Source: a virus (Duplodnaviria; Heunggongvirae; Uroviricota; Caudoviricetes). From it: 64,000 bases of DNA. Position 1 is the stretch's first letter. Each line of letters starts with the position of its first letter. This document shows positions 33,648 through 61,358 of the stretch, piece after piece. The notes beneath the pieces were generated by a model that saw only the letters and a program-made list of their open reading frames with translations, made no database searches and was not told where the DNA came from. Location: IMG/VR virus record IMGVR_UViG_3300017700_000784, positions 1-64,000 of that record; one strand, written 5' to 3'. A program made the position numbers and the translations under genes.

Positions 33648-33649
33648 TT

Positions 33650-33994: not shown

Positions 33995-33997
33995 ACC

Positions 33998-35201: not shown

Positions 35202-35210
35202 ATGGTACAA

Positions 35211-35281: not shown

Positions 35282-35300
35282 CAAAGACTAAAGAAAAGAA

Positions 35301-35696: not shown

Positions 35697-36099
35697 ATCT
35701 CTGGTAGAGAAAACTGCACAAGACTTGAACTTGCCAACTGAGGCTGTTGATGATCTTGTGTTGTTCTTTTATCAGGAACTGCAAAAGAAGATGTCACAGT
35801 GTTTTTTCCATTCACTGTGGGTTCCCAATCTGGGAACTTTTGTAATTAAGAAGAAGTCACTATCTGATATGATTGACAAGCATACTAATTTTATAGCGAG
35901 ACTTGAAAGAGATGAGGCTATATCAGTAAGGATGTATGAGGCTATACTCACATCAAAGAAGCAAATAGATATTCTTACTGATATGAAGAATATAATGACA
36001 GTAGAAGAAGATAAAAAAAATAACATAAGACAAAAAAGAAAAGAATATATCAATGGCAAACTTAATCAAGATTTGGAAGGAGAGAGGGAGGATTCTTGA
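35677..36099 (+). CDS. hypothetical protein
   Basis: 140-aa ORF. Confidence 0.45.
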   Translation: MNPLKRKSLVEKTAQDLNLPTEAVDDLVLFFYQELQKKMSQCFFHSLWVPNLGTFVIKKKSLSDMIDKHTNFIARLERDEAISVRMYEAILTSKKQIDILTDMKNIMTVEEDKKNNIRQKRKEYINGKLNQDLEGEREDS

Positions 36100-36361
36100 A
36101 GGTATCAAGAATAATATCTTTAGAAAGCAGCATGTTGAAATCATTGCTGCAACAAGACAAACTATCTGTGACTCATGTGAGTTTTTAGATACTGAAGGCA
36201 CTAAATGTGCTATGGCAGGTACTCAACCCTGTTGTGCAGAATGTGGATGTAGCCTTGCTTTTAAGACAAGAAGTTTATCATCAGCATGCCCTAAGAACTT
36301 CTGGAAAGCAGAACTTACTCCAGAAGAAGAAGCAGAATTAAATAAAAAAATAAGAAAATAA
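36053..36361 (+). CDS. Cys-rich hypothetical protein
   Basis: 'CDSCEFLDTEGTKCAMAGTQPCCAECGCSLAF...SSACP'. Confidence 0.4.
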   Translation: MANLIKIWKERGRILEGIKNNIFRKQHVEIIAATRQTICDSCEFLDTEGTKCAMAGTQPCCAECGCSLAFKTRSLSSACPKNFWKAELTPEEEAELNKKIRK

Positions 36362-38546: not shown

Positions 38547-38712
38547 ATTATATAACTGGTTATTTCACTATAACCATCACACAGGAAAGTGGACAGGATT
38601 CCACAGGGATGATACAACAAATTACTGGAATGGGGGAGCTACTAAGTTCCCTGTTTTTGTACATGAAGACTTTCATACTATAGTAGAGCTTATTAAAAAA
38701 ATTATCTCTTAA
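38527..38712 (+). CDS. hypothetical protein
   Basis: 61-aa ORF. Confidence 0.3.
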   Translation: MIKTMDKLYNWLFHYNHHTGKWTGFHRDDTTNYWNGGATKFPVFVHEDFHTIVELIKKIIS

Positions 38713-40919
38713 TGTTTATACATATCCCAACATATGATGATACCACAAAGGAGTGGTCTTACACTGATTTTGAAACAAGGGAAGATTTTCTAGCTTACCT
38801 TTGGTCTATATTTAAAGTACCTGGTGAATATAACTTTGATGAAACATCACTTAAGTTTAATGAACAGGCTTTAAATTTTGAAAAAAATGGTAAGATATAT
38901 TGCTTTGCTCCTATGAGGTCTAAGGATTATAAGACATATTGGGATACTGAAAAAGAGAAGTGCAGACAAGGAGTTATATTTAAGAATAAAAAAGCATCAT
39001 GGTATCTTACCAGAGATTATTACATGTGGCTTAATTTTCTTCCTATCTATAATAAAGAGATTTCAAGATTTGGTTTTGCTAAAATTAGAGATGCCCAGTA
39101 TCATATGGCTCTTTATGAGGATATAGCCAGATATAGTTACAAGCATGGAGTAATACTTAAGAAGCGTCAGATAGCTTCCAGTTACTATCATGGTGCCAAG
39201 ATGATTAATTACTTCTGGTTTGAGGAAGGTTCTATTAACAAGATAGCAGGTTCTCTTAAGGATTATATTGGTGAGAAAGGTACATGGCGTTTTCTTGAGG
39301 AGTATAGAAACTTCTTAAATAGTTATACAGCCTGGTACAGACCTTGTACTCCGGATAAGATATTTAACTGGGAGCAGAAGATTGAGATTAATGAATCAGG
39401 CAGAAAAAAAGATATAGGTTTAAAATCTGTTATTATGGGTCTTATCCTTGATAAGGATCCAACTAATGGTGTTGGGGGACCTTGTACCTTCTTCTTTCAT
39501 GAAGAGGCAGGGATTGCTCCTAAGATGAACCAGACTATAGAATACTTATTACCAGCTATGAAGTCTGGTATGATTTATACAGGCCAGTTTATTGCAGCAG
39601 GATCTGTTGGGGATTTGGATCAGTGTGAGCCTTTAAGAAAGATGATAGAGCGCCCTGAGAGTAAAGATGTACTAGGTATAGAAACTAATCTTATAAATGA
39701 TAAAGGGGAAGTAGGTATAAGAGCTTTATTTATACCTGAACAGTGGTCAATGATTCCATGTATAGATGAATATGGAAACTCTGAAGTTGAAAAAGCTTTA
39801 GAAATGATATATGCAGAAAGAATTATCTGGAAGAAATCACTTGACCCAGAAGATTATCAGTTACGTATCTCACAAAAGCCTACAAATATTGATGAAGCTT
39901 TTGCTAGTAGAAAACTTGCTAAGTTTAATCCTGGGCTAGTTACAGCACAGATAAGAAGAATAGAGGATGATACTTACCATAAAGATTATATAGAGCTTGA
40001 GAGAGATGATAAAGGAGAAGTTATAAGTAAGCTCTCTAAACATATTCCTATATCAGAATTTCCTATATCTCCAAAGACTGAACACAAAGAAGGAGTTATA
40101 GTTTGTTGGGAGAAACCTTTATCTAAGAATCCAGAGTTTGGAACTTATTATGCTTCTATTGACCCTGTATCAGAGGGTAAGACAACTACTTCTGAATCAC
40201 TCTGTTCTATTTACATTTATAAAACAGCGCAGGAAGTAATAAAACATAAGTCAGATGGTAGTATAGACTCAACTATAGAACCGGATAAAATAGTTGCTGC
40301 ATGGTGTGGTAGATTTGATGACTTAAATAAGACTCATGAGAGACTTGAATTAATGATAGAATGGTACAATGCCTGGACTATAGTAGAGAATAATATTAGT
40401 TTATTTATTCAATACATGATCTCTAAGAGAAAGCAGAAATATTTAGTTCCTAAAAGTCAGATATTATTCCTTAAAGAATTACAAGCTAATGCTAATGTAT
40501 TTCAAGAATATGGATGGAGAAATGTTGGGACACTCTTCAAGAGTAATCTTGTTTCTTATGCACAACAGTTCATAGAAGAACACTTAGATTATGAAACTAA
40601 GACTGATGGTACCATAGTAAAGACTACTTATGGTATAGAAAGAATTCCTGATATAATGCTTCTTAAAGAGATGCTTGCTTATAGAGATGGACTTAACGTG
40701 GATAGACTTGTAGCTTTTTGTGCTATGGTTGCTTTTGCCCAGGTACAAAGTTCTAATAGAGGATACAGTAGAAGAATAGAAAGAGAAGACAGTGATAATT
40801 TGCAAAATCAGAATAATTATGCTAAATTGAGAGTGAGTCCGTTTAGACATATAGGCTCAGGAAAAGGGCTATCTGATACCATGAAAAAGCCTCATAACCC
40901 ATTTAAAAACTTAAGATAA
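38712..40919 (+). CDS. candidate terminase large subunit
   Basis: 735 aa, immediately upstream of the portal, scaffold and capsid block. Has a degenerate Walker-A-like 'VILKKRQIASSYYHGAK' and a C-terminal 'YASIDPVSEGKTTTSESLCSIYIYK' resembling the terminase nuclease first-Asp strand. Confidence 0.45.
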   Translation: MFIHIPTYDDTTKEWSYTDFETREDFLAYLWSIFKVPGEYNFDETSLKFNEQALNFEKNGKIYCFAPMRSKDYKTYWDTEKEKCRQGVIFKNKKASWYLTRDYYMWLNFLPIYNKEISRFGFAKIRDAQYHMALYEDIARYSYKHGVILKKRQIASSYYHGAKMINYFWFEEGSINKIAGSLKDYIGEKGTWRFLEEYRNFLNSYTAWYRPCTPDKIFNWEQKIEINESGRKKDIGLKSVIMGLILDKDPTNGVGGPCTFFFHEEAGIAPKMNQTIEYLLPAMKSGMIYTGQFIAAGSVGDLDQCEPLRKMIERPESKDVLGIETNLINDKGEVGIRALFIPEQWSMIPCIDEYGNSEVEKALEMIYAERIIWKKSLDPEDYQLRISQKPTNIDEAFASRKLAKFNPGLVTAQIRRIEDDTYHKDYIELERDDKGEVISKLSKHIPISEFPISPKTEHKEGVIVCWEKPLSKNPEFGTYYASIDPVSEGKTTTSESLCSIYIYKTAQEVIKHKSDGSIDSTIEPDKIVAAWCGRFDDLNKTHERLELMIEWYNAWTIVENNISLFIQYMISKRKQKYLVPKSQILFLKELQANANVFQEYGWRNVGTLFKSNLVSYAQQFIEEHLDYETKTDGTIVKTTYGIERIPDIMLLKEMLAYRDGLNVDRLVAFCAMVAFAQVQSSNRGYSRRIEREDSDNLQNQNNYAKLRVSPFRHIGSGKGLSDTMKKPHNPFKNLR

Positions 40920-43642
40920 TGCCTAAAATTTTTAATGCATTACAGCTTAAAGCTGGAGCAACTTCAGAATATAACAGGATGGGTACCTTAACCCGTCCTA
41001 TACAATTTATACTTACCTCTCAAAAGACACAAGAATGGGGAGCCTGGAATATGGATTGGTTAGAGATGCAAGGGTTAAAACAACTAAGAAGAACTTCAAG
41101 AAGATTACTTAAGAATTATAAACTTGCTAATGGTATTATTGACAAGTCAGATTACATTGTCTGTGAAGATAATGAGAATGCTGAGATAGTTGATATCCTT
41201 ACAAAAGAGAATGATTCAGCTTTTGAGTTAAAGTTCTTTCCTATTATACCTAATGTTATCAATGTACTTGCAGGAGAGTTTGCAAAAAGAAATGATAAAA
41301 TTACTTATTTATCAGTAGATGACATCTCTTATAATGAGATGTTAGGAGCTAAGATGGAGATGGTTGAGGAAAATGTTGTTGCTTATGGTGAAAACATTAT
41401 GAGACAAACCATGAAAGAGATGGGTTTAACTGAAGAAGATGAAGAGGCACAACAAATGATGGCGCCTGAGAATATTAAATCTCTTCCTCAAATTGAACAA
41501 ACTTTCAAAAAAGATTACAAATCTCTTAGTGAACAATGGGCTACTCACCAACATAATGTAGATACAGAAAGATTTTACCTTAAAGAGCTTGAGAATATGG
41601 CCTTTAAGGATATGCTTATTACTGATAGAGAGTTCTGGCACTTTAAACTTAATGAGGATGACTATGATATTGAATTATGGAATCCTGTATTAACCTTTTA
41701 TCACAAGTCTCCTGAAGCAAGATATATTTCTCAGGGTAACTGGGTTGGTAAAATAGATTTAATAACTATTGCTGATGCTATAGATAAGTATGGTTATATG
41801 ATGACTAAGGATCAGCTGCAGTCATTAGAAGTTATTTATCCTGTACAAGGTGCCGGATATATGTTACCAGGAGTACAGAATGATGGTAGTTTCTATGATG
41901 CTACTAAATCTCATGATTGGAATGTTGAAGGACCTTCTTTAGGCATGCGTCAGTTTATGGCTTTCCATAGTGCTGATAGTATGATGGGAATGGGAGAAGA
42001 TATTATATATAAAATACTTAATCAGTCTGAAGATTTATCAGACCTTCAGAATTATAGCTTACTAAGAGTTACTACTGCATACTGGAAATCCCAAAGAATG
42101 TTGGGACATAGAACTACTATTGGACCAGATGGTGGAATGACTCAGTCTATAGTTGATGAAACATTTAGAGTTACAGATAAACCTGTTTATGATACAACTG
42201 TACTTAAAGGAAAGAGATTAGAGAATCTTATATTTGGTGACCATGTTGAATGGATATGGATAAACCATACGTATGGAGGAGTTAAGATAGGCCCTAACAG
42301 ACCTAGTTATTATGGTAATAATGATGCTAATGGTTTCCAGCCTATGTACTTAGGACTTGGACCAATTAAGTTTCAGTTTAAAGGTGATAGTAGTTTATAT
42401 GGTTGTAAGCTTCCTGTAGAAGGAGCTGTCTTCCATGATAGAAATACACACTCAAGAGCTTTGGTAAATAAGATGGAACCTTTCCAAATTGGATTTAATC
42501 TTACTAATAATCAGATAGCTGACATATTAGTAGATGAATTAGGTACAGTAATTCTTTTAGATCAAAATGCTTTACCTAAACATAGTATGGGAGAAGACTG
42601 GGGTAAACATAACTTTGCTAAAGCTTATGTTGCCATGAAAGACTTCCAAATGCTTCCTTTGGATACTTCTATTACCAATACAGAGAATGGTATGAATTTC
42701 CAACATTTTCAAGTACTAAACTTAGAACAGACACAAAGATTACTTTCAAGAGTACAGTTATCTAATTACTTTAAGCAACAAGCTTTTGAAGTAATAGGTA
42801 TTACTCCTGAGCGACTTGGCGCTGCTACAGGACAACAGACAGCAACCGGTGTGGAACAAAACCTGGCTGCAAGTTACTCTCAGACAGAGATGTACTTTGT
42901 GGATCACTCTGAGCACTTGATGCCAAGAGTACACCAAATGCGTACTGACTTAGCTCAATTCTATCAGTCTACTAATCCTAGTATTAGACTACAATATATG
43001 ACTTCTATAGATGAGAAGATTAATTTTGAAATGAATGGTAAAGATCTCTTGCTTAGAGACATCAATGTATTCTGCTCTTCTAAAGTTAATCAGAGACAAC
43101 TTATGGAACAAATAAGAAACTTGGCTTTATCTAATAATACAGCCGGTGCTTCTATATTTGATTTAGGTAATTTAGCTAAAGCTGACTCTCTTGCAGAGAT
43201 TACACATACTCTTAAAGCTATTGAAGAGAAAACGGAAGCTCAAGGTAAAGCAATGCAAGACCATGAACTTCAATCTCAAAATATGATTGAGCAAGCAGAG
43301 ACTCAAAGACTTGAGATGAAACAGAAATTTGATGCTGAGCAAAATGCTCTTGATAGAGCATCTGAGGAGTATATAGCTGAAATTAGAGCTGCTGTAAATA
43401 CAGGGGTTAAAGATTTCAATGGTAATCAACAAACTGACTATATAGATACTTTAGAATATCTTGATAGTAAGCATGCTAAAGAAGAAGACATAGCTCTTAA
43501 AAGAGAAGCTCTTTCACATAAGCAAATGAATGAACAACAGAAGAATTCTTTAAAGGATAAAGAGCTTCAGATACGTGAAAAAATTGCTAATAAACAGTTA
43601 CAAGTTGCTCAAACCAACAAAAACAAGTATGACAAGAAATAA
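40919..43642 (+). CDS. candidate portal protein (large, with C-terminal coiled coil)
   Basis: 907 aa. Assigned by position between the terminase candidate and the scaffold. The C-terminal 150 aa form a charged coiled coil. Confidence 0.4.
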   Translation: MPKIFNALQLKAGATSEYNRMGTLTRPIQFILTSQKTQEWGAWNMDWLEMQGLKQLRRTSRRLLKNYKLANGIIDKSDYIVCEDNENAEIVDILTKENDSAFELKFFPIIPNVINVLAGEFAKRNDKITYLSVDDISYNEMLGAKMEMVEENVVAYGENIMRQTMKEMGLTEEDEEAQQMMAPENIKSLPQIEQTFKKDYKSLSEQWATHQHNVDTERFYLKELENMAFKDMLITDREFWHFKLNEDDYDIELWNPVLTFYHKSPEARYISQGNWVGKIDLITIADAIDKYGYMMTKDQLQSLEVIYPVQGAGYMLPGVQNDGSFYDATKSHDWNVEGPSLGMRQFMAFHSADSMMGMGEDIIYKILNQSEDLSDLQNYSLLRVTTAYWKSQRMLGHRTTIGPDGGMTQSIVDETFRVTDKPVYDTTVLKGKRLENLIFGDHVEWIWINHTYGGVKIGPNRPSYYGNNDANGFQPMYLGLGPIKFQFKGDSSLYGCKLPVEGAVFHDRNTHSRALVNKMEPFQIGFNLTNNQIADILVDELGTVILLDQNALPKHSMGEDWGKHNFAKAYVAMKDFQMLPLDTSITNTENGMNFQHFQVLNLEQTQRLLSRVQLSNYFKQQAFEVIGITPERLGAATGQQTATGVEQNLAASYSQTEMYFVDHSEHLMPRVHQMRTDLAQFYQSTNPSIRLQYMTSIDEKINFEMNGKDLLLRDINVFCSSKVNQRQLMEQIRNLALSNNTAGASIFDLGNLAKADSLAEITHTLKAIEEKTEAQGKAMQDHELQSQNMIEQAETQRLEMKQKFDAEQNALDRASEEYIAEIRAAVNTGVKDFNGNQQTDYIDTLEYLDSKHAKEEDIALKREALSHKQMNEQQKNSLKDKELQIREKIANKQLQVAQTNKNKYDKK

Positions 43643-45042: not shown

Positions 45043-46689
45043 ATGAGTACACCTGTATTAAACAATGGTCTATTCTTGCGTGACACTACCTACAAGGCCA
45101 GTTCACACATAGACTCCTACCACTTGCTAAATATGCTTAGAAGCTCAGAGCCTATGGATTTAGGACCTGTTGACTTATGGGCAATGACGCAAAAGGTAGA
45201 AATGCCTCTTTATCAGATGGCATCCTTTGGTGGTAAGAACACCATCATGGTAGATAACGCCCGTGGGGAGTATAAATGGCAGACGCCAATTGTACAAGAT
45301 CTACCTTACATTGTAGAAGATGTTGAACCTACTATCACCTCTTTAGGTGCTGATGGAACATCATTCAAAATCAAGCTTAACAGACGTGTATTTGGACATG
45401 GTGATATCATCACTTATGACAAGTACAAAGGATTGGAGCTTTATATCCTTCCAGCAGAAGATGTTCTTCCAACAGGGGATGGTTTTGTATACACTGTTCA
45501 ATTAGTAAACAACAACAACACTGCAACCTTAGACAAGAAATACCTTAAACCAGGTACTAAGTTCTTCAGAAAAGGTTCTGCCCGTGGTGAATATGGAGAG
45601 AGATTCTCTGACATCGGGGAATTGACAAATGGTTTCCGTGAGTACTACAACTTTGTTGGTGGTGCTGAAGCTCACGTACACTACTCTATCTCTTCTCGTG
45701 CAGACATGATGATGAAAGGTGGTATTAAAGCAGATGGTACTGTGCCAGTTACAGAAATTTGGAGATCATTTGATAAAAACTTAGATCCTTCTATTACCCG
45801 TATTGATGATATGGTTAAGAAAATGGGTGCTGACTGGGTTAAAAAATCTTATGACAATGGAAGTCTTACAAGATCTTTTGTTACAAATTTAGAAGCTGCT
45901 CACTTATCTAAAGTAGCTAATGACATTGAGACTTACTTAATGTGGGGTCAAGGTGGTAGAATCAAGCAAGATGGTCCGGATGATATTAGATTATCAGTAG
46001 GTCTTTGGAATCAGCTTGATAATTCTTACAAAAGAATCTACAACAAAGGTAGCTTTAACCTTGAGTTATTCCGTTCTGAAATCTTCAACTTCTACAATGG
46101 TAAAGTTGAATTTAAAGGACCAGATCCTAATAGACAAATCATTGTTCAGACTGGTATGGCTGGTATGAGAATGGTTAATGAAGGAATCAAGAAAGAAGCT
46201 TTCAGTCCTGCAGGTACTGGTACAACCTTGTATGCTAACATGGACAAATCAGGTATTGGTGCTATTAGTGGTAACAGTGCTATGGATTTGAACTTTGGTT
46301 TTGCTTTTACAAGTTATACCATTCCTTTCTTAGCAAATGTTAAGTTTGTACTTAACCCTGCTTTTGATAATGTTCATACTAATGATATTGAAAACCCAAT
46401 CATTGATGGTTATCCTTTATCTTCTTATAACTTTATTGTATTTGATATTACTGATAATACAAATGATAACATCTTCTTATTGAAATTATCTTGGGATAAT
46501 CAATTGAAGTGGTTCTATCAAAATGGTACAATGGACTACATGGGTAAAACTCAAGGGTTTACTTCTAGTGGTAACTTTAATGGATATAGAGTCTTTATGA
46601 CTCAGACTATGCCTTCTATCTGGGTGAAAGACCCTACTAAGGTATTGAAAATTGTAATGAGAAATCCAGTTACTGGAGGATCATTCTAA
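45043..46689 (+). CDS. candidate major capsid protein
   Basis: 548 aa, after the scaffold and followed by strong tandem stem-loops. Strong RBS-less Bacteroidetes-style start. Confidence 0.5.
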   Translation: MSTPVLNNGLFLRDTTYKASSHIDSYHLLNMLRSSEPMDLGPVDLWAMTQKVEMPLYQMASFGGKNTIMVDNARGEYKWQTPIVQDLPYIVEDVEPTITSLGADGTSFKIKLNRRVFGHGDIITYDKYKGLELYILPAEDVLPTGDGFVYTVQLVNNNNTATLDKKYLKPGTKFFRKGSARGEYGERFSDIGELTNGFREYYNFVGGAEAHVHYSISSRADMMMKGGIKADGTVPVTEIWRSFDKNLDPSITRIDDMVKKMGADWVKKSYDNGSLTRSFVTNLEAAHLSKVANDIETYLMWGQGGRIKQDGPDDIRLSVGLWNQLDNSYKRIYNKGSFNLELFRSEIFNFYNGKVEFKGPDPNRQIIVQTGMAGMRMVNEGIKKEAFSPAGTGTTLYANMDKSGIGAISGNSAMDLNFGFAFTSYTIPFLANVKFVLNPAFDNVHTNDIENPIIDGYPLSSYNFIVFDITDNTNDNIFLLKLSWDNQLKWFYQNGTMDYMGKTQGFTSSGNFNGYRVFMTQTMPSIWVKDPTKVLKIVMRNPVTGGSF

Positions 46690-49160: not shown

Positions 49161-50774
49161 ATGGCGTATTTTCCACATGCATTCCAGAAGATGATGGTAG
49201 CAAACAGTTTTGTCACTGCTGCAGGAACAGCTAGTTCAGCTTTGACAGCTGGGCAGTTGGCAATCATCGATGCTGCCACTAACAACTCAGTTGTTATGTC
49301 TGGCGCAATCACTTATCAAACTACACCTCTAGTTTATCTAGCACAGGGTAGTTTCCACACCACAGATAAATTAGGCCCCTATCATGGAGGTTATAAAGAG
49401 TCTGTAAAGTCTAAAGGTATTAATCCTAAGTACATTAGTGCATTTACTGTATCTGAACCTGCAAATCCTGTACAGGATATTGTTCAAGTTCAAGCTACTG
49501 TTGGTTGTGCTGTTGCTTGTAATACTACCTATGAACTAAGAGTTGATGTTAAAGGCTCTCCAGCCCTACGTTTTTTAACACACAATGCTTACTACACTGT
49601 TGATGCTTTTACAGGATGCTGTGATGCAAGTAATAACAATGTAGATCCTAACATTGTATTGTTACAATGGGCAGACAGATTGACTTATCCTACTGTAAGT
49701 CCTTTTATTCAGGCTAAAGTTTGGAACAGAGTATTAGTTGCTGGTGTAGCTGCAACAGCTACTGCTACAGCTGCTACTTCTTTAACTATGACGGATAGAA
49801 CAGGTATTCTTGCTGGTGACAGAGTGGTATTTACACCATCTACTGCAACTACTGCAACTGGTTCAACTATTGCTGGTAATACTTTTACTGTAGGTACTGC
49901 TACTAACACTATTTTCTCTGTAGGACAAGTTCTTACTGGAACAGGAGTAGCTGCAGGTACAACTATTGTATCTCGTGTTTCTGGAGGTGGTGGTACAGGT
50001 TCTGTATTCCTTGTAAATCAAGCACAGACTGTAGCTTCAACTGCTATATCTTCTGCTAGTCCAGTAACAGCTTATGTTAGTTCTGCTCATGTAGCTGCAA
50101 CAGGTGCTGGAACTGTAGCTTTAGTTGCTGCTGATACACTTTATACTACAAGTGCTACAGCTATTAGTGCTGTAACCACTGCTGCTTTAACTGCAGTTAA
50201 GATTTATAATTCTATTGCTTTAGCTACTTATACACCTTTAACAGGTGCTTCTTTACCTGACACTGTAGATTCATTCTTGGAAATTGTAGGAGCTTATGTA
50301 GACACTACTTTTGGTGACTGCTCTTTCTCTCCTATTGACCATGTAGAATACCAACCGGTTGATATTTATGCTTCTGTGTTTATTTTGGACCCACTTGGTA
50401 ATCAATGTTTGACTACTTGTTTTGTACCTACTGAAGTACAGAATTCATTCCAAGGTAGAGGATTTGGTGAAACTCTTTTAAGAGAATTAATCTTATCTGA
50501 AAGCTATAGACAAGAATACTGGCATCAAGATGTAAGAACAAGAGAAATCTTGGATTACAATCCTTTAGGACAAGTAACAAGAGGTAGTAAATATTATATC
50601 TACAACCTATTGCATAGTGTTCCACGTAAAAGCAATCCTTCAGGTACCATGGACAATGACCAGTACTTAATCAGAATTGTTGCTACTGCAAGAAATACTA
50701 ATTTTGAGACTGCTATCAACACTTTGTTGACTACTGCTGGTAATTATGATACAACTTTAAAACTGTTACCATAA
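49161..50774 (+). CDS. Thr/Ala/Gly-rich structural protein
   Basis: 537 aa with a central low-complexity segment 'VAGVAATATATAATSLT...TATTATGSTIAGNTFTVGTATNT...SGGGGTGS'. Followed by a strong terminator. Confidence 0.5.
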   Translation: MAYFPHAFQKMMVANSFVTAAGTASSALTAGQLAIIDAATNNSVVMSGAITYQTTPLVYLAQGSFHTTDKLGPYHGGYKESVKSKGINPKYISAFTVSEPANPVQDIVQVQATVGCAVACNTTYELRVDVKGSPALRFLTHNAYYTVDAFTGCCDASNNNVDPNIVLLQWADRLTYPTVSPFIQAKVWNRVLVAGVAATATATAATSLTMTDRTGILAGDRVVFTPSTATTATGSTIAGNTFTVGTATNTIFSVGQVLTGTGVAAGTTIVSRVSGGGGTGSVFLVNQAQTVASTAISSASPVTAYVSSAHVAATGAGTVALVAADTLYTTSATAISAVTTAALTAVKIYNSIALATYTPLTGASLPDTVDSFLEIVGAYVDTTFGDCSFSPIDHVEYQPVDIYASVFILDPLGNQCLTTCFVPTEVQNSFQGRGFGETLLRELILSESYRQEYWHQDVRTREILDYNPLGQVTRGSKYYIYNLLHSVPRKSNPSGTMDNDQYLIRIVATARNTNFETAINTLLTTAGNYDTTLKLLP

Positions 50775-50795: not shown

Positions 50796-50832
50796 AGAGG
50801 GAAGATTAAAAGTCTTCCCTCTTTTTGTTTTG
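50796..50832 (+). terminator. rho-independent terminator
   Basis: AGAGGGAAGA-ttaaaag-TCTTCCCTCT followed by TTTTGTTTTG. Confidence 0.65.
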
Positions 50833-51841: not shown

Positions 51842-53431
51842 ATGAGTACTCCTTTAAATAATCCTGAATCTAATAGGAATCACTGTTCAAAAATTTCTTC
51901 TGCTTGTGTAATATGGCAGGGACCAGATATATCTTGTATTAATCTTCAGAATGGAGATGCTATTGATACAGTAGTATTTAAGTTAGCTACTTTATTGTGT
52001 GAAACTACAGAGAATGTACTTGATGTTACTACTTTAGATTTTGCATGCTTAGTAGGGGATGATCCTAATCCAGCTACACTACTTGCTACATTACAAGCTA
52101 TTATTAATAAAGTATGTAGTATTGATACCACTCCTACAGATTCTGTATCTGCTAGAGGAGGTGATAGCAATATTATCGTTGCTTTACCAACTTGTCTTTA
52201 TTTTACAAATGATGAGGGAGACACAGTTACTTCTTTATTATTACCAGATTATGCAGCTTATCTTGCACAAGTTATTTGTACTATTATTAGTGATATTACA
52301 GCTCTTCAGTCAAATAATAATAACCTTACTAAAAGAATAGGCACTCTTGAATCTCAGGTTGCTAATCTTACAAATTATACTTATTCTATTTATGTAACTT
52401 CACAATGTGCAAGTTCTGAAACTCCTGGTGAAAATATACTTATAGAAGAAGCCTTTTCAAATCTTGAGTCTACAGTATGTAGTTTAATGAGTACAGTAGG
52501 TATTTCAAATATGCTTATAGCTGCTATTAACAAACAGTGTCCAGGATTAAATTCTGTACCTCAACTTAGTAATCCTCCAGATTTAATGAAGGATTTATCC
52601 GGATGGGTAGAAGGGCCAACAAATGTAGCAGATACTATAGGTAATTTATGGCTTACTGTATGTGATATGAGAACTAAGTTAACTACTTTTTTCAATACTC
52701 CAATACCTGATCCTTGTATTATAGCATCTCCTGAAAATCTTGAAATATTAACTATTGCAACTTCTTATGCTACTGTAACATGGGAACCTTCCTCTTTACC
52801 AGATATAGAAGCTAATATAGGATATAGAATTGAAGTATTTGAATGGACAGGTTCTGCTCCTACAGGGCCTTCTTTATGGTCAGCTACTGTAGATAGTGCT
52901 ACAACTAGTTTAAATATAGGAGATCCTGGTATAGTTGTAGCTCAGGATTATGTAGTGTTTATATATGCTATTTATTCTTGTGGTGAATCTACACCGGCTA
53001 AGATTGTATCAGAGTTACTTGTACCAACTGTTGTATTTAATATTGAAGTTAGTGAAACTACAGATACTCCAGGTACAAGAGACTGTCTTGAAAGTGGGAT
53101 ACCTGTAACATATGCTGTTGTAAACAAAACAACAACAGTAACACTTATTAATGTTATTTCAGGATTACCTGTTATAAATGCTTATGCTTATAATATAGAT
53201 GTAATTTTAAGATATGAAATTACCAGTTGTTATACATTTACTCCTTCTTATGAAGATGTGACTTTTTCAATTCTTCCTGGAGCAAGTAGTGCTTCTGTTA
53301 GTTATGAAGCAGAATCTTATGTAAATTGTGATACAGCATTTTGTACTACACTTAATAAAGATATCAGTTGTGGAGTATCTATATCAGATATGAACACAGA
53401 ATTTGATGGAATTACTATAACCATTTGTTAA
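51842..53431 (+). CDS. tail fibre / baseplate-associated protein (coiled coil + FN3-like)
   Basis: Carries the shared N-terminal module 'ACVIWQGPDISCINLQNGDAID'. Also a heptad region 'ITALQSNNNNLTKRIGTLESQVANLTN' and an FN3-like 'LTIATSYATVTWEPSSLPDIEANIGYRIEV'. Confidence 0.5.
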   Translation: MSTPLNNPESNRNHCSKISSACVIWQGPDISCINLQNGDAIDTVVFKLATLLCETTENVLDVTTLDFACLVGDDPNPATLLATLQAIINKVCSIDTTPTDSVSARGGDSNIIVALPTCLYFTNDEGDTVTSLLLPDYAAYLAQVICTIISDITALQSNNNNLTKRIGTLESQVANLTNYTYSIYVTSQCASSETPGENILIEEAFSNLESTVCSLMSTVGISNMLIAAINKQCPGLNSVPQLSNPPDLMKDLSGWVEGPTNVADTIGNLWLTVCDMRTKLTTFFNTPIPDPCIIASPENLEILTIATSYATVTWEPSSLPDIEANIGYRIEVFEWTGSAPTGPSLWSATVDSATTSLNIGDPGIVVAQDYVVFIYAIYSCGESTPAKIVSELLVPTVVFNIEVSETTDTPGTRDCLESGIPVTYAVVNKTTTVTLINVISGLPVINAYAYNIDVILRYEITSCYTFTPSYEDVTFSILPGASSASVSYEAESYVNCDTAFCTTLNKDISCGVSISDMNTEFDGITITIC

Positions 53432-53452: not shown

Positions 53453-54247
53453 ATGTCTTGTCCTAATGAAACTTGTAATCCTGGTTGTGGTTGTGTTAAC
53501 TGCTGTCCTCCACCAGTGCCTCCAACACCACCAACTCCACCTGACTGTGAAGGAACAGATTGTGAAGAGTTATATGATGGCGCCTGTGTAAATTATACAG
53601 GACCTGCTATAACTTGTTTTGGTATTACTACAAATATGAGTTTAAATGCAATAGTTCAGACTATGGCACAAACTTTATGTAATTGTGCTCAAACAGGAGC
53701 AACATGTCTTAATCCTTTAAAAGTACTTGTGCAGAGAAGTTTGGCTATATATCAGTCTATGATTAATGTCACACCTGATGTTATTACTTATAGTGCTCTT
53801 ATTATAGATATTCTTGATGCAGGTCTTATATTTAAAAAATGTAATTACTGTTGTCCTGATAATGTTGCTTATGGATTATTTTTTGATACAGATGATTATG
53901 GTCCTTTCTTAGAAACCATAGAAACAATAAATATACAAGACCCTGTTACAAATCCTTGTTTAAATTGTGCTGAAGGTTTTACCACATGTAGTGCAGAATT
54001 TTTTACTAATGCTGAAGTAACTGCTTATCCTATTATAGAATTTGGAGGATTTAATACTGCTTCTGGATTATGTGCTTTAGTATCAGAATTTGAAGGACAT
54101 CCTGCTGAATTACTTGCTGAATTTATAACAGGTATATCAGATGAGGGTCTTATAGTAGCATGTGATACTGAAAAAGGAGATGTCTTTATAGGTAATAATA
54201 GATCTTATAGTGTATATGTAGAAACTTTAGGTTTAGCTAAACTTTAA
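53453..54247 (+). CDS. Cys-rich tail-associated protein
   Basis: 'CNPGCGCVNCCPPPVPPTPPTPPDCEGTDCEE' then the shared module 'ACVNYTGPAITCFGITTNMSLNAIV'. Confidence 0.5.
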   Translation: MSCPNETCNPGCGCVNCCPPPVPPTPPTPPDCEGTDCEELYDGACVNYTGPAITCFGITTNMSLNAIVQTMAQTLCNCAQTGATCLNPLKVLVQRSLAIYQSMINVTPDVITYSALIIDILDAGLIFKKCNYCCPDNVAYGLFFDTDDYGPFLETIETINIQDPVTNPCLNCAEGFTTCSAEFFTNAEVTAYPIIEFGGFNTASGLCALVSEFEGHPAELLAEFITGISDEGLIVACDTEKGDVFIGNNRSYSVYVETLGLAKL

Positions 54248-54262
54248 AATAAAAATAAAATC

Positions 54263-54883
54263 ATGGCGTGTCTTAAAAACCCTTTAATAGAATACATAAA
54301 ATATATTGTAGCTCTTTATGATGCTGATCCAGATGCTTATCCTGGTGGATTAGCAGAAACTTTTACTGATAATTCTAGTTATGAATTTCAGTCAAGTAGT
54401 AATTCTGAGTATTGTTGTCCTACTTGTGGAGGAGATTATGCTGGAGGAGGGTATTATCTTACCTTTAATCCAGCAATAGCAACTCCTCTTATAATTGATG
54501 ATCTTACAGGATGTTGTATAAATTATGATGCTGTAAATATTACTTCACCAGATTTTTTAGAGTTTATAGAAGCTGCTCATGGTTTAACTATGATTAATTG
54601 TTGTAATACTTTTCAAACCTGTGTACAGAATTTTAGAAATTTATTTCAAGATTCTTACTTTTCAGTAGATGGAGTCGTGTCTGATATAACTATAATAGAA
54701 CTAACACTTATTGATGATAGTAGTGTTATATGTGACTTATATGATTATTTAATTAATAATAATTTATCAGCTTCTCATTTATATGATATTTTTGATACTA
54801 TCTATACTACAGGTGGCTTTAGTGTTCAGTGTGAATATTTAGCAGGTCCTACACCTTTTAAGACTACTGTAGCCTTATTATAA
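54263..54883 (+). CDS. Cys-rich tail-associated protein
   Basis: CC doublets: 'EYCCPTCGG', 'TGCCINYD' and 'INCCNTFQTC'. Confidence 0.45.
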   Translation: MACLKNPLIEYIKYIVALYDADPDAYPGGLAETFTDNSSYEFQSSSNSEYCCPTCGGDYAGGGYYLTFNPAIATPLIIDDLTGCCINYDAVNITSPDFLEFIEAAHGLTMINCCNTFQTCVQNFRNLFQDSYFSVDGVVSDITIIELTLIDDSSVICDLYDYLINNNLSASHLYDIFDTIYTTGGFSVQCEYLAGPTPFKTTVALL

Positions 54884-54902: not shown

Positions 54903-57554
54903 ATGTATCCTGATGATAACTGTTCAGATTGTCCTGACTGCCCAGAAGTAATAACACCTCTACCATTACCAGATCTTTCTGGATTATGTGGGGATACTTA
55001 TGATCTAAGTTGTGTTATATATACTGGTCCTGCTATACCTTGTATGGGTATTACAGCAAATATGTTTATTACAGATATACTTGATCTTTTTGTTGAAGCT
55101 AGTACTAAATGTGATTGTTGTAAAGAACCTCCTCAAGATTGTGTACTTGGTCCATGGTCAGATTGGGGAGCATGCCTATGTGTAGATGTTTTAGGCACTG
55201 TTACATGTACTCAAACAAGAACTAGACCTGTTGTTACTGCTCCTGCAAATGGAGGTGTATTATGTGGTCCTTTATCAGAAACAAGAGATTGTACTCCTGA
55301 TGATGTATGTTTTACTTTTGGAGGATATTTGTGTGAAACTTATGAAGCTGTTCAAGTTACTAAATCTGTTTCAGGTATATATAATAATAAACCTTATTAT
55401 TCTTTTACTCAATGTGGTGTCATTTTTAATATTTGGTGGGAAACTTCTGATAACAAATGGCATTGTAATACAGATATGGGAGGAGTTAAAATTCCTGCTA
55501 TAACAGATCAGACACTTGATAATGGTAATTTATACTATCCTATATCAAACAATACTACTCAACTATGGATAAACCAAAATACTGGTTTAACTTTATTTTT
55601 AATAAGTACTACACTTACAACATGTCCTCCTGTAGAAATATGTTTTTCTCTTACTATAGAAGGAAGCACTCATCCTTTTACATTATATTTTAATACTGGA
55701 CCAAGTGCTACAAATACTAATAGTGGTAATTATCCTTTTTATAATTTTAATGTAGTAGTTGAAGCTAATAATTATAATATAAACATAGCATATGATTTTG
55801 ATATTCCTAGATGGGTTGCTACAAGTGTAGAATTAGGTACTATAGGATATCTTAATACTAATGCTTTTTTACCTATTGGTACTTGGGTTCCAAATCCAAC
55901 TAATATTGGTAATTATATGGTTAATTCAGTATTATCTGATACTTGTGTGGTACCAGAGGATGTTGATTGTGTAGTAACTTGGGGACCATGGGAAGATTGT
56001 GGTCCAGGAGGAACTCAGAATAGTTATGGTGTTATAACTACTCCACCTAGTGGTAATGGTGCACCATGTCCTTCTCTTATTCAAACACAAGATTGTGCTT
56101 TTCCTTTTTGTAATCCTCCTTCAAATGTAGTAATTACTATTTCAGGAGCAGATTTGATTATAAGTTTTACAGCTGCATCAGGAGCTAGTACTTATGATGT
56201 TGTATATAGTACAAATGGAGGGATTAGTTATACTACTATAAATACACCTACTTCACCTGTAAGTTTTCCTTATACCTGTGGGTTAACTTATACAGGATAT
56301 GTAGTTACACACTGCACTAATGGAGTTACTAGTAATCAGGTTCCTTTTAACATAACAGTACCTGATTGTCCTGCTGGACCTTTATGTGCTGATTTACTTG
56401 AGCCTTTTGTTACTGGAGTACAGACAGGAGGAGGAGTATATACTTTTAAGATTAACAATGATGGTTTCTATAATGCTTTATTCCCTAATACTGTATGGAG
56501 TACTAATGGTCTTGTATGGGCTGAAAAACTTACTTCTACAGGATTCTTTATTGGTGGTAGATTTACACAACTTCCTACAGGAGTAAATAGAAAAGGACTT
56601 GCTAAGTTAACATGTGCAGGACAAACAGATCCTAACTTTATAGTTACTTCAGGGTTTCTTGAATACACAAATTCACAAACTAACAGAGGAACAGTCTTTG
56701 CTATAGATGTAGATACAGCATTAGGAAGAGTATATGTAGGAGGTAATTTTTCTTCATGGAATGGTGTTCCTTGTAATAATATAGTTTGTCTTGATCTATT
56801 TGGAGGAGTTGTATCAGGATTTAATATAGGCACCGGATGTCAAAATGGGGGCCTTTCTACTCCTTATCCAAGTGCTGCTGTAAATACATTAAAAGTACAA
56901 GCAGATGGAAAAGTACTTATAGGTGGACAATTTACTACTTATAATGGAACTACTGTTGTAGGTTTAGCAAGAATTAATACTAATGGTACTTTAGATACAG
57001 GATTAGTACAAGGCACCGGTTTATCTTTTCTTCCTAATGCTGTTACAGTAAGAGACATACAAGTAGACTCTAGTAATAGAATTTATGTAGCAGGAGATTT
57101 TGCAAGTTATAATGGTAATATTAGCACATGTCTTGTAAGGCTTTTGGCTAATGGTAATTATGATTCATCATTTAGTATAACTAATAAATTTACATTTCCT
57201 GCAAGTAAGATTATAGAAAGAACTCTTATAATAGGAACTAAAGTTTATGTAGCCGGATATTTTACAGGATATAATGGAACAGCTGTTAAATATTTAGTAA
57301 GACTTAATATAGCAGATGCTACATTAGACAATACTTTTTTACTTAATAATAGTGTTGCTCCTGGAACAGCCATACTAGATATCAAAGAAGCATATAATGG
57401 TAATATTCTTATAGCAGGTGATTTACAAGGATATAGAGGTGCTACAAATAAATTTTATCATGTTCTTAATCCAGTTGATGGTGAAGTACTTGCAATACCT
57501 TATCCTGTTTTTCCTGCAGGAGTATTACAGCTTAATCATATAGGAATTGTATAA
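54903..57554 (+). CDS. large tail fibre / adhesin with TSP1-like repeats, FN3 domain and delta-60-type beta-propeller
   Basis: Shared N-module 'SCVIYTGPAIPCMGITANMFITDIL'. TSP1-like 'GPWSDWGACLC...TCTQTRTRP...CGPLSETRDC' and 'WGPWEDCGPGGTQNS...CPSLIQTQDC'. FN3-like 'PPSNVVITISGADLIISFTAASGASTYDVVYSTNGG'. Six propeller blades with 'YVGGNFSSWNG', 'LIGGQFTTYNG', 'YVAGDFASYNG', 'YVAGYFTGYNG' ... 'LARIN/LVRLL/LVRLN'. Confidence 0.6.
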   Translation: MYPDDNCSDCPDCPEVITPLPLPDLSGLCGDTYDLSCVIYTGPAIPCMGITANMFITDILDLFVEASTKCDCCKEPPQDCVLGPWSDWGACLCVDVLGTVTCTQTRTRPVVTAPANGGVLCGPLSETRDCTPDDVCFTFGGYLCETYEAVQVTKSVSGIYNNKPYYSFTQCGVIFNIWWETSDNKWHCNTDMGGVKIPAITDQTLDNGNLYYPISNNTTQLWINQNTGLTLFLISTTLTTCPPVEICFSLTIEGSTHPFTLYFNTGPSATNTNSGNYPFYNFNVVVEANNYNINIAYDFDIPRWVATSVELGTIGYLNTNAFLPIGTWVPNPTNIGNYMVNSVLSDTCVVPEDVDCVVTWGPWEDCGPGGTQNSYGVITTPPSGNGAPCPSLIQTQDCAFPFCNPPSNVVITISGADLIISFTAASGASTYDVVYSTNGGISYTTINTPTSPVSFPYTCGLTYTGYVVTHCTNGVTSNQVPFNITVPDCPAGPLCADLLEPFVTGVQTGGGVYTFKINNDGFYNALFPNTVWSTNGLVWAEKLTSTGFFIGGRFTQLPTGVNRKGLAKLTCAGQTDPNFIVTSGFLEYTNSQTNRGTVFAIDVDTALGRVYVGGNFSSWNGVPCNNIVCLDLFGGVVSGFNIGTGCQNGGLSTPYPSAAVNTLKVQADGKVLIGGQFTTYNGTTVVGLARINTNGTLDTGLVQGTGLSFLPNAVTVRDIQVDSSNRIYVAGDFASYNGNISTCLVRLLANGNYDSSFSITNKFTFPASKIIERTLIIGTKVYVAGYFTGYNGTAVKYLVRLNIADATLDNTFLLNNSVAPGTAILDIKEAYNGNILIAGDLQGYRGATNKFYHVLNPVDGEVLAIPYPVFPAGVLQLNHIGIV

Positions 57555-57561: not shown

Positions 57562-57630
57562 CTTACATATGTTTTGTTGGTTTTACATATGTAAGAAACT
57601 TTCCCTTGCTTAGGCAGGGGTTTGTTTTTA
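57562..57630 (+). terminator. double hairpin; the second is a canonical rho-independent terminator
   Basis: Hairpin 1: CTTACATATG-ttttgttggtttta-CATATGTAAG (57562-57595). Hairpin 2: CCCTTGC-ttag-GCAGGGG followed by TTTGTTTTT (57603-57629). Confidence 0.65.
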
Positions 57631-57675: not shown

Positions 57676-58938
57676 ATGATTTTTATTTCTAAATTAGTTT
57701 ATCAAGGTTTTAGTAGAAAAGCTTCTAGTGAAAAAGAAGCGGAGAGATTAAAGCTTAATATAAAGGATTATCTCTATATTAAGAAAAAAGTAAGAGAAGC
57801 AGTATGGTTTCTTAGAGGAGAAGTAAATGATGATGTTTTTATGAAAATAGATGAAAGTCTTACTGAATATAAACCCCAGAATACTGAAATTATAGAAACT
57901 ACTTACAATATGAAAGATAATAGTAAAACTATTACTGCATTATCTTCAGTAGAACCTAAGACTCCAGAAGAGATTATTCAACTTCTAAAAATAGATATCA
58001 CAAAATGGAGAATTTCACAAATATGGAACAAACAGAAAAGTGATAAATGGCTTATTTCTGCTTCTATAGTTCCACTTCCACAAGAGAAAATAGTAGAAGA
58101 ATCCTTTATAGATAAGTTAGCTCGTCATGACCTTCCTATGTATGACAAAATAGACCCTACATATCTTAATGTTGCATCAACAGAAAGAATATGTGGGGTT
58201 GTTTCTTTACAGGATTTACACTTTGGTAAGCCAGGTAATGAAGATCTTAAGACTGTTGTAGATGATGCTGTATTATATCTTGTAGGAAAAGCATACAAGA
58301 ACTATAATCTTGACAAACTTATATTAGTCATAGGTTCTGATACATTGAATATGGATACCTTTTCAGGCACAACTACAAAAGGGACTCCTGTAGATAATTC
58401 AGAAGTAGCCACAAAAGCTTATCTTAAAGCCTTTGATGCACTGTGTGGAGTAATAGGCAGGAGTAAAGAGTTCTGTAATGAGCTAGAGATAGTTTATATT
58501 CCAGGTAATCATGATAGATTATCTTCCTTTCATTTAGTACATGCACTTAGTCAGGTGTTTAAATTGACTGTAAGTATCACTTTTGATGTTCATTATGCTG
58601 AAAGAAAAGTAATTATGTTTGGAAAGAATATGATAGCATTAGAACATGGTGATGTAACTTCTAAAAATAACCCACTTATATATGCTACTGAGTTCTCAGA
58701 AGAATGGGGTAAATCAAAACATAGATATTTATATACAGGTCATTACCATGGTAGAAAGACTAAAGAGGTTATTACAGAGAATGAGGAGCAAGGATTTGTT
58801 ACTAGAATTCTTCCTGCATTAACCTCTTCTGATTACTATCATTACCATAATAAATGGACAGGAAATCAGAGAGCAGCTATAATACACATTCATGAATATG
58901 ACAAAGGACTTATATCTGAATTTGTCTATAGTGTATAA
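57676..58938 (+). CDS. calcineurin-like metallophosphoesterase
   Basis: Motifs 'DLHFG', 'LVIGSDTLNMD', 'YIPGNHDRL', 'ALEHGD' and 'YLYTGHYHG' (GNHD ... GHxH). The track ORF starts at TTG 57622, inside the terminator; ATG 57676 is preferred. Confidence 0.55.
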   Translation: MIFISKLVYQGFSRKASSEKEAERLKLNIKDYLYIKKKVREAVWFLRGEVNDDVFMKIDESLTEYKPQNTEIIETTYNMKDNSKTITALSSVEPKTPEEIIQLLKIDITKWRISQIWNKQKSDKWLISASIVPLPQEKIVEESFIDKLARHDLPMYDKIDPTYLNVASTERICGVVSLQDLHFGKPGNEDLKTVVDDAVLYLVGKAYKNYNLDKLILVIGSDTLNMDTFSGTTTKGTPVDNSEVATKAYLKAFDALCGVIGRSKEFCNELEIVYIPGNHDRLSSFHLVHALSQVFKLTVSITFDVHYAERKVIMFGKNMIALEHGDVTSKNNPLIYATEFSEEWGKSKHRYLYTGHYHGRKTKEVITENEEQGFVTRILPALTSSDYYHYHNKWTGNQRAAIIHIHEYDKGLISEFVYSV

Positions 58939-59583: not shown

Positions 59584-60255
59584 ATGATTCCAGTAGGAGA
59601 AGTTTTATCCAGATTGCGTAACCAGATTAAGGCAGTAAAAAGTGATGCTTTTATTACTGATAGATTCTTGTATTCTATGGTTATGAAACACGCTAAGATG
59701 TTGATCAGAAGACAGGACTTGCGTAATAAGATTATGAAGTTTAATAGTGTATTCCAGACTCTTAACTTTGTAGAGCTTATAGAAGTAGATGCAGCTGAAT
59801 CACAATGTCACTGCATAAAAAGTGGTTGTATATTTAAGCGTACAAAAGATAAAATTCCAAATACTTTTGAAGGGCAGTTTGGACCTTTATTTAGATCTAT
59901 AATGTCTATAGATATGTCACAGGAGATTTATCCTACCTATCCTACTTTATATGAAAAGATGCTTAATCAAAAAACATTCAAGTATAACAATAAGAAATAT
60001 TATTGGTATATGGATGGTCATTTGTATTTTCCTAATATAGAATGGGATGCTATAAGAATTGAAGGTGTTTTTGAAGGTGACATAAGTGGTTATAATTGTG
60101 ATACAACAGATGATTGTATTTATATACAGGATACTATGTTTACTATTCCAGAATATTTATATGCAGAAATAGAACAAAATGTTATAAGGGATTTAGGTAT
60201 CATGCTTAATATACCTTCTGATGATACTCATGATAATAAAAATATAGTAAGATAA
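59584..60255 (+). CDS. hypothetical (structural?) protein
   Basis: 223-aa ORF. Confidence 0.5.
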   Translation: MIPVGEVLSRLRNQIKAVKSDAFITDRFLYSMVMKHAKMLIRRQDLRNKIMKFNSVFQTLNFVELIEVDAAESQCHCIKSGCIFKRTKDKIPNTFEGQFGPLFRSIMSIDMSQEIYPTYPTLYEKMLNQKTFKYNNKKYYWYMDGHLYFPNIEWDAIRIEGVFEGDISGYNCDTTDDCIYIQDTMFTIPEYLYAEIEQNVIRDLGIMLNIPSDDTHDNKNIVR

Positions 60256-61358
60256 TGGCACTTAAAGAACCTACTTATAGAACATTTGATGAACTTATGG
60301 ATAGTGTAAGACTAGACTTATATTCATGGAATCTTGAGGGCATGCTTGAATCACAACAACTTATCAAAGTTGCTATGAGAGTAAGTTATGATTTAGGATT
60401 TAAAATAAATCAGCAAAAATCAAGTGTTATAGAAATACATAAACGCAAAGGTAAATTACCTGAGGGCTTTGATGCAATGAACTATGCATTAGCTCTTGAA
60501 GATAGATATACTGAAGAAATCCCAAGTTATAATAAAACATATAGTGAGGGTATCCTTGAAGGAGTTGTTTTAGCACAGAACTTCCTTGAGCCTAGATTTG
60601 TTAATCAAGCAACTGTATATACAGACATAGTTTATGGAATAAATATTATTACTCATAATCTACAAACCATGAATGTGGTTATTCAGGTATTTAATACTGA
60701 TGGAAGCTTGCTTGACTTTGATGTAGAGATTATAGATTTGAATAACATAAGAATTATATCAGAATCTGTAGATACTATATTAGCATGTAAAGTAGTAGTG
60801 CTTGGTGCCAAGATTAGTACTGTAGGTACGTCTACTTCAGGTTCATGTCCTGCAATACTAGACTGTACTTCAGATGGTACTCCTAAAATTTATTATACCA
60901 CTAATGGTAGAAGAAATCATAGTAAGAACCTCAAACCTTTAACATTTACTGATTCCAAATCAGTATCTCCTGAGTGTGATGTTAAAAGAGGCCCTTGTAC
61001 TAACTATTATGATGTATTTATTAAGAATGGTTTTCTACATACTATGTTTGATGAAGGAGTTGTTTATATAAACTTTCAATCAATTATGGAAGATGATGAT
61101 GGTAATCTCTTAGTACTTGATAATCCTTATACTAATGAATATTATGAGTATGCTCTTAAACAGCGTGTATTTGAAAATTTATTTATGGCAGGAGAACCTG
61201 TTCAGAATCATCTGCAGCTTATGAATCAAAAACTTAAAGAGGCAAGAACTGTAGCATTAAGTTTTGTTAATACTCCAGACTTCAGAGAGATGAAAACTGT
61301 AATAGATATGAATAGAAAAGCAATGTATGCTAGATACTATAGCATGTTCAATCACTAA
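60255..61358 (+). CDS. hypothetical structural protein
   Basis: 367-aa ORF with ATGA overlap with the upstream gene. Confidence 0.5.
   Translation: MALKEPTYRTFDELMDSVRLDLYSWNLEGMLESQQLIKVAMRVSYDLGFKINQQKSSVIEIHKRKGKLPEGFDAMNYALALEDRYTEEIPSYNKTYSEGILEGVVLAQNFLEPRFVNQATVYTDIVYGINIITHNLQTMNVVIQVFNTDGSLLDFDVEIIDLNNIRIISESVDTILACKVVVLGAKISTVGTSTSGSCPAILDCTSDGTPKIYYTTNGRRNHSKNLKPLTFTDSKSVSPECDVKRGPCTNYYDVFIKNGFLHTMFDEGVVYINFQSIMEDDDGNLLVLDNPYTNEYYEYALKQRVFENLFMAGEPVQNHLQLMNQKLKEARTVALSFVNTPDFREMKTVIDMNRKAMYARYYSMFNH

Follow-up and report, generated by a model that had tools for sequence, protein, structure and literature searches.

In a 64,000-nucleotide stretch of viral DNA (positions 1 to 64,000 of the IMG/VR record IMGVR_UViG_3300017700_000784; hereafter the window), the open reading frame (ORF) at positions 54903..57554 of the plus strand, stop codon included, encodes a modular, Cys-rich protein of 883 amino acids (aa) that we consider, with a probability of roughly 65%, to be a virion-surface host-recognition fibre of a crAss-like phage, most probably one of several tail fibres. 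The polypeptide runs from a four-Cys N-terminal adaptor through a thrombospondin type 1 (TSP1) repeat, a two-part β-rich module, a second TSP1 repeat and a predicted immunoglobulin (Ig)/FN3-like sandwich to a seven-bladed DUF5122 propeller. Its N-terminus is a module shared with many other proteins and its C-terminus is variable and exchangeable. An earlier analysis that had only the DNA letters at its disposal (the sequence-only reading) had described a mosaic, Cys-rich tail fibre with TSP1-like repeats, an FN3 domain and a six-bladed propeller. Its ORF, which begins with ATG and ends with TAA, and both of the Cys/Trp segments that it quoted are present exactly as described, and the mosaic, Cys-rich character is borne out by 36 Cys residues, or 4.1% of the chain; it had overlooked the adaptor, the middle module of 220 residues and the fact that the phage is crAss-like. 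A modular receptor-binding fibre is a well-known kind of phage protein; the novelty here lies in the domain composition, in the Cys-knot adaptor family and in a middle module that has no structural neighbour.

The protein was also found with an identical sequence (P0001) on a contig whose recorded length is 135,967 bp, and about 38 homologues were collected, all of them annotated as 'hypothetical protein' at source; relatives reside on fifteen IMG/VR contigs. A 39-sequence alignment served to build an AlphaFold2 (AF2) model of the fibre protein, the mean predicted local distance difference test score (pLDDT) of which is 81.

Both Cys-rich segments are true TSP1 repeats, as had been proposed from their motifs. 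Pfam TSP1_spondin (PF19028) matches the protein in two stretches with an E-value of 3.9e-13 and a score of 49.9 bits, which exceeds the gathering cut-off of 41, the better stretch covering residues 80-134, while TSP_1 (PF00090), one of the profiles that the sequence-only reading had named, reaches 12.1 bits and stays below its cut-off of 21.6. Repeat a (55140..55310, plus strand; aa 80-136) carries the motif W85-S-D-W88-G-A-C91...TQTRTRP...ETRDC130, and repeat b (55968..56111, plus strand; aa 356-403) the motif W360-G-P-W363-E-D-C366...QTQDC398. When a profile of repeat a built from 22 homologues was compared with the PDB, it retrieved TSP1 domains exclusively (R-spondin-2 at 2e-8 and complement C6 at 2.5e-6, followed by F-spondin, C8alpha and C9); the profile of repeat b matched the F-spondin TSR 1vex at 3e-3 and, weakly, midkine. 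An hhalign comparison shows repeat a and repeat b to be homologous (probability 98.9%, E 1.7e-17). Across the 39 homologues, which are 32-49% identical, there is little or no variation at W85, W88, R106, W363, a GG pair and the Cys columns, the conserved Cys columns being 80, 91, 93, 102, 121, 130 and 136 in repeat a and 356, 366, 389, 398 and 403 in repeat b. The AF2 model places strands at residues 92-96, 99-107, 110-112 and 125-129 of repeat a with pLDDT values of 78-90.

The Arg ladder that accompanies the Trp motif is present in repeat a as TQTRTR, with R106 in 36 of the 39 sequences and Arg or Lys at position 108 in 37. Repeat b of the window protein is the oddity of its family: it has retained WxxW but has lost the ladder, reading TQNSYG where the family has TRTRT and where R374 is found in 37 of the 39 sequences. 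In most of the family, moreover, the first Trp position of repeat b is occupied by Cys (35 of 39 sequences at column 360), which is paired with a Cys at column 376, and the remaining four sequences have an aromatic residue and a non-Cys residue at these columns. Such covariation would fit a contact between strand A and strand B, although the sequences are related and the number of independent changes is accordingly small. Two relatives with the same N-terminus (P0040 and P0041) carry four canonical repeats each, which PF00090 recognizes with 48.9 and 57.1 bits.

Outside the family, the nearest matches are eukaryotic multi-TSP1 proteins (P0042-P0045). The phage repeats share the strand-A WxxW, the (T/Q)xRxR motif, GG-x-C and the Cys spacing with the TSP1 domains of eukaryotic spondins and complement proteins (R-spondin-2, 8xft; F-spondin, 1szl/1vex; complement C6, 3t5o), but differ from them in the Cys that replaces the first Trp of most family repeats b, with its extra strand-B partner, and in the missing ladder of the window protein's repeat b. 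Unlike eukaryotic TSP1 domains, those of a phage are made in the bacterial cytoplasm without a eukaryotic secretory pathway, C-mannosylation or O-fucosylation.

The C-terminal part of the protein (56391..57551, plus strand; aa 497-883) is a delta-60/DUF5122 β-propeller. Pfam PF17164 matches it in four stretches with an E-value of 4.4e-33 and 113.7 bits against a gathering cut-off of 27; TIGR02608, the model named in the sequence-only reading, also recognizes the repeat (E 9.6e-15, two stretches) but its 54.2 bits fall short of the curated cut-off of 76.5. The motif GG-x-F-x-x-Y/W recurs at residues 551, 613, 674, 730 and 784, and a sixth, degenerate copy lies near residue 838. Six full repeats span residues 533-868, and a seventh is split around them, residues 497-532 providing the 'KINNDGFYNALF' half and residues 869-883 the first strand. 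Because this split repeat flanks the six full ones, the propeller is seven-bladed with a closure blade, so that the delta-60 assignment made earlier stands and the count of six blades does not. The predicted fold is that of a closed β-propeller. Only one PHROG, phrog_5490, matches the fibre protein; it has no assigned function and covers the propeller part alone. Delta-60/DUF5122 surface proteins of Bacteroidota and other bacteria (PF17164, TIGR02608) have the same repeat of about 55 residues, GG-x-F-x-x-YNG...R-L-N-x-DG-x-LD-x-x-F, and a predicted propeller fold, but they are secreted, whereas here the propeller forms the head at the C-terminus of a protein of the phage particle. Bacteroides also has seven-bladed binding propellers that are exposed at the surface (BtuG/YncE family, BT1954); these belong to another repeat family, are 10-13% identical and function in another biological context.

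The N-terminal adaptor (54942..55139, plus strand; aa 14-79) consists of a Pro-rich leader, four invariant cysteines (C29, C37, C47 and C72) and a helix at residues 56-69. A profile of this module retrieved 729 proteins at E ≤ 1e-3 from a search of 1.84 billion cluster representatives, and in these proteins, which range from about 50 to 2000 aa, it is nearly always found at the extreme N-terminus; in some homologues of the fibre protein its first half is duplicated there. Among the 68 adaptor proteins that were scanned for partner domains, TSP1_spondin was found in 19, TSP_1 in 11, DUF5122 in five and fn3 in four, and the other partners comprise Fib_succ_major, a CHU_C-associated Ig domain, BspA-type LRR, DUF11, Lcl_C, DUF4832/4874 and K1-lyase_C. 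The named PHROGs of adaptor proteins are tail fibre, tail protein or central tail fibre J in nine of 11 members; the remaining ones are 'virion structural protein' and 'methyltransferase', and no head protein is among them. The adaptor core (profile positions 26-41) has 11 partial matches in a 6218-aa protein encoded outside the window (P0153), while all other hits are single and N-terminal.

Between the two TSP1 repeats lies the middle module (55311..55967, plus strand; aa 137-355), which is made of two β-rich subdomains, M1 and M2, and has no recognisable family or fold neighbour. A sequence search of the PDB returned nothing but a non-significant match to a lectin (E 0.59), and a profile search of a 5.8-billion-protein collection, limited by its word prefilter and therefore uninformative, returned a single fragment.

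Residues 404-489 (56112..56369, plus strand), where an FN3 domain had been proposed, are an Ig/FN3-like β-sandwich by structure prediction: the AF2 model shows seven strands within residues 407-485 at pLDDT values of 75-90. Profile searches lend the FN3 assignment no support, as Pfam fn3 is absent from the fibre protein at E ≤ 10 and is also absent from 15 family members, a family profile has no match in the PDB, and an hhalign comparison with fibronectin FN10 gives a probability of 3%. The single, weak sequence match of this region is to PDB entry 3mpc, a 'Fn3-like protein' (phmmer E 0.011). Foldseek comparison of the whole chain with the PDB returned generic receptors that combine FN3 domains with a propeller (ROS1, Sevenless and BT4663), in alignments that are not domain-specific.

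The family varies in the manner looked for in a tail fibre or receptor-binding protein, with a conserved N-terminal part and a variable, exchangeable C-terminal part. Identity to the homologues, 54% in the adaptor, is down to 27% in the propeller, and the propeller is swapped in orthologous genomic slots, which makes the receptor-binding role assumed in the sequence-only reading plausible. Relatives P0002-4 are 53-56% identical to the window protein in the propeller and 41-42% identical over residues 14-489, whereas P0006-11 show the reverse, with 24-29% in the propeller and 43-47% over residues 14-489; this discordance between shaft and propeller indicates recombination. Furthermore, eight homologues retain residues 1-490 and end in an unrelated C-terminus, and one of them, P0036, occupies the same genomic slot. 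The domain of about 290 aa that replaces the propeller in P0030, P0036 and their relatives (locus L003, 10001-12637) has no Pfam match and may, to judge from its repeat-like sequence, be a different propeller or another β-rich head.

The fibre gene comes last in a Cys-rich operon that is bracketed by two terminator-like hairpins, one with a 12-bp stem at its upstream edge (50796..50822, plus strand) and a GC hairpin followed by a T-run immediately 3′ of the fibre gene (57603..57620, plus strand), with the capsid gene on one side and the ring and muzzle-size genes on the other. All longer genes of the operon are unusually Cys-rich (3.7-8.0%, compared with 4.1% for the 883-aa fibre). Its first long gene (51448 is its last position, 50885 its first; plus strand) encodes 187 aa with 3.7% Cys and is followed by genes for 529 aa (51842..53431, plus strand; 3.8% Cys), 264 aa (53453..54247, plus strand; 8.0% Cys) and, directly upstream of the fibre gene, 206 aa (54263..54883, plus strand; 5.3% Cys), the last of which is syntenic in relatives. 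The 264-aa protein has the same N-terminal adaptor as the fibre protein (48% identity over 46 aa, E 9e-11), and the 529-aa protein has a weak match to the adaptor motif (E 0.009) as well as an fn3 match near threshold (23.5 bits against a cut-off of 25). On relatives' contigs of 120-126 kb, the gene order is capsid ... 540/188/55/74/533/215/202/TSP1 protein/422/194/ring 2/ring 1/giant protein, the numbers being protein lengths, and in one relative the giant protein that follows ring 1 has the muzzle size of 2212 aa. The fibre gene is thereby found in the virion structural module, between capsid and ring/muzzle-size genes and with conserved synteny, as was looked for in a tail fibre or receptor-binding protein gene. 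As the second slot of the operon holds a DUF11/CLIPPER protein in relatives, the slots are individually exchangeable. Upstream of the operon, a conserved 537-aa gene (49161-50774, plus strand) has one match, a sub-threshold glycine-rich domain; the hairpin at 50796-50822, the strongest terminator-like hairpin of the region, follows this gene and suggests that it is a separately, perhaps highly expressed structural gene.

The gene families of the window identify it as part of an uncultivated crAss-like phage. The crassvirus major capsid protein is encoded at 45043..46689 on the plus strand (PF23898, Crass_capsid, E 1.8e-31), and tail ring protein 2 and ring protein 1 at 59584-60255 and 60255-61358 of the same strand (Ring_2, PF25702, E 8e-21, and Ring_1, PF24228, E 1e-9, respectively); together with the 2212-aa neighbour seen in the relative, these families are the grounds for the assignment to Crassvirales. 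PHROG and Pfam searches located the large terminase at 38712-40919 and the portal at 40919-43642, the best matches of the latter being to a Leptolyngbya phage (29.8% identity) and an epsilon crAss-like phage (27.3%). A megablast search with 12 kb around the fibre gene found no DNA match among GenBank phages, and by such comparisons the phage is remote from anything deposited.

In the mechanism that we propose, the conserved adaptor would dock the fibre protein onto the particle, alongside at least one neighbouring gene product that bears the same adaptor and a second that bears a weaker match to it. The TSP1 repeats and the sandwich would act as rigid spacers, presumably stapled by disulfides once lysis frees the particle, and might bind glycans too. 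The variable propeller at the far end would bind a host surface molecule and set the host range, and related phages could alter their specificity by recombining or replacing this C-terminal head. Since a hydrophobic, signal-like stretch is not seen in the sequence of the fibre N-terminus, release by lysis as a component of the particle is the simplest exit route.

Several observations weigh against a host-recognition tail fibre. A comparison with the PDB chains detected nothing homologous to a solved fibre or hub protein of PhicrAss001, and the tail-hub genes expected in a crassvirus were not identified in the window by sequence search. Such searches are too weak to find hub proteins, as even ring protein 1 matches gp43 of PhicrAss001 with an E-value of only 0.016. 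Most tail fibres are trimers, and the window protein is a string of typically monomeric modules with no evident coiled coil or β-helix, a build that would fit a Hoc-like capsid decoration equally well. Finally, the structures closest to the propeller are lactonases, so that an enzymatic head is conceivable.

A competing, unlikely interpretation is that the protein is a fibre or decoration adhesin of the head, the adaptor of which plugs into hexon pockets like the N-termini of PhicrAss001 gp21 and gp29 and the beads-on-a-string body of which gives weak, multivalent adherence to polysaccharide matrices and surfaces instead of primary receptor recognition. In PhicrAss001, head fibres dock by short N-terminal segments in hexon pockets, different oligomers in different pockets (PMC10172136), and an obvious trimerisation element is missing from the normally monomeric modules of the window protein; the block of capsid genes directly precedes the operon, and two or three proteins sharing one adaptor could fill many equivalent capsid sites. 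However, known crassvirus head fibres are about 100 aa in length, compared to the 883 aa of the window protein (PMC10172136), the named PHROG matches of adaptor proteins are mostly to tail fibre and tail protein families with none to head families, and one adaptor protein carries K1-lyase_C, a domain that Pfam names after a phage capsule-specific lyase. Replacement of the C-terminal head together with recombination is, furthermore, the classic signature of receptor-binding tail proteins. From the gene position and the annotations of other adaptor-bearing proteins we infer a location on the tail rather than on the capsid, and the PHROG and K1-lyase associations and the swapping pattern tip the balance modestly in its favour.

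That the propeller is itself an enzyme, namely a lactonase, an esterase or a polysaccharide-modifying depolymerase that degrades or deacylates the host capsule in the manner of a tailspike, with the TSP1 and middle modules supplying substrate binding, seems improbable: DUF5122/delta-60 repeats have, by the Pfam name of the family, no known catalytic function, and the invariant columns of the propeller are mostly Gly, Phe and Tyr, among which no conserved acidic or His cluster stands out, even if other proteins with the same adaptor do bear enzyme-type domains (K1-lyase_C and DUF4832/DUF4874). An artefact, either an unexpressed ORF or a chimeric assembly that joined a eukaryotic TSP1 fragment to phage sequence, would fit the overwhelmingly eukaryotic occurrence of TSP1 repeats and the eukaryotic origin of the nearest matches outside the family, but the same protein is present in independent assemblies (JGI and Logan), the homologues have the same architecture in the same syntenic slot on crAss-like contigs of many different samples, the base composition does not change along the gene, and the repeats sit between phage-specific modules in one uninterrupted ORF. 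The conserved synteny effectively refutes an artefact, to which we assign a negligible likelihood. A broader proposition, doubtful as it stands, is that a whole environmental crAss-like lineage builds its adhesins from a disulfide-rich toolkit of the eukaryotic extracellular-matrix type, comprising a dedicated Cys-knot docking adaptor, genuine TSP1 repeats that bind sulfated glycans and are more than spacers, and a middle module of new fold. If true, TSP1 could either have been exchanged with eukaryotes or have an independent prokaryotic-viral reservoir, and the phages might adhere to sulfated polysaccharide matrices, such as algal or animal surfaces and host capsules, besides their bacterial host.

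Close counterparts of the proposed host-recognition fibre are the tail fibre proteins (gp22 and partners) and head fibre proteins (gp21 and gp29) of the Bacteroides phage PhicrAss001, a member of the same virus order, which has fibres attached through short N-terminal segments, a tail stabilised by disulfides in a disulfide-stabilised virion, and several fibre genes clustered in the structural module (PMC10172136). These features would be shared by the window fibre, but there is no detectable sequence similarity between the two, and the PhicrAss001 fibre genes lie between the portal and capsid genes, whereas those of the window lie between the capsid and ring genes. The four-Cys adaptor is distinct, and TSP1 repeats, the middle module and the propeller go unmentioned in the passages of the PhicrAss001 report that were consulted (PMC10172136).

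The domain combination of the fibre was found in no deposited phage genome that was searched. Searches by tblastn with the fibre protein against 50,697 GenBank phage records, and with its four-TSP1 relative P0040 at E 0.1 against GenBank phages, gave no relative. The family alignment, scanned against 185,579 prokaryotic species genomes, found no relatives there, and neither did a second scan of these genomes with a TSP1 pair as the query, a weak negative given that it detects close relatives only. A full-text literature search, in which absence is not proof, found no paper in which phage fibres are tied to DUF5122 or to TSP1 repeats. Eukaryote-like adhesion modules displayed on the particle as beads on a string are also seen in T4 Hoc and in other phage proteins that consist of Ig/FN3-like modules; Hoc, however, is Ig-like throughout and binds the capsid by its C-terminal part, whereas the window fibre has an N-terminal anchor, TSP1 repeats and a large propeller.

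Crassviruses are abundant and their receptor-binding proteins poorly understood, with almost none annotated outside the gut lineages. The locus presents a readable fibre operon and a clear case of C-terminal head swapping, and the adaptor signature, which covers 729 clusters, is portable and can flag fibre genes in uncultivated crass-like phages. The recurrence of TSP1, usually deemed eukaryotic, in phage particle proteins (19 of the 68 adaptor proteins) is relevant to where the fold originated and how it spread, and also to the way in which disulfide-rich extracellular modules can fold when the protein is made in the bacterial cytoplasm. The middle module is a candidate for structure determination, and the domain-swappable build is a natural scaffold for host-range engineering.

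Within the structural module, after the fibre operon and ahead of the tail ring genes, at a position that is syntenic in relatives, the plus strand encodes a metallophosphoesterase that belongs to the phage T1 'DNA repair exonuclease' type (57676-58938; phrog_704, E 1.6e-48) with DxH, GNHD and GHxH motifs. It is no homologue of the tail hub protein that fills this position in PhicrAss001; this 420-aa gene upstream of ring protein 2 had been considered as THA and was rejected on account of its T1-type identity. The 194-aa gene, another tail-hub candidate, has no match in the PDB.

A tRNA with a CUA anticodon, labelled 'Pyl' by ARAGORN, is encoded at 22913-22986 on the minus strand. Such a tRNA is a potential amber suppressor, and tRNAs of this kind have been linked to stop-codon recoding in crAss-like phages. 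TAG ends six of the 51 long ORFs of the window and interrupts none of them in frame; mis-called ORFs due to TAG recoding were therefore rejected, the fibre gene itself stopping at TAA. A thioredoxin with the WCGPC motif (PF00085, E 1e-11) is encoded at 32977-33321 on the minus strand; it is of a type common in phages and may bear on the redox handling of the very Cys-rich virion proteins. The GC and AT skews flip sign near 34 kb (within about 33000-35300), where divergent modules meet, with minus-strand genes before this point and plus-strand genes after it. A tRNA-Met lies at 35211-35282, and a 102-aa ORF at 36053-36361 (plus strand), which has no Pfam match, contains 7.8% Cys in a zinc-finger-like CxxC...CxxC pattern.

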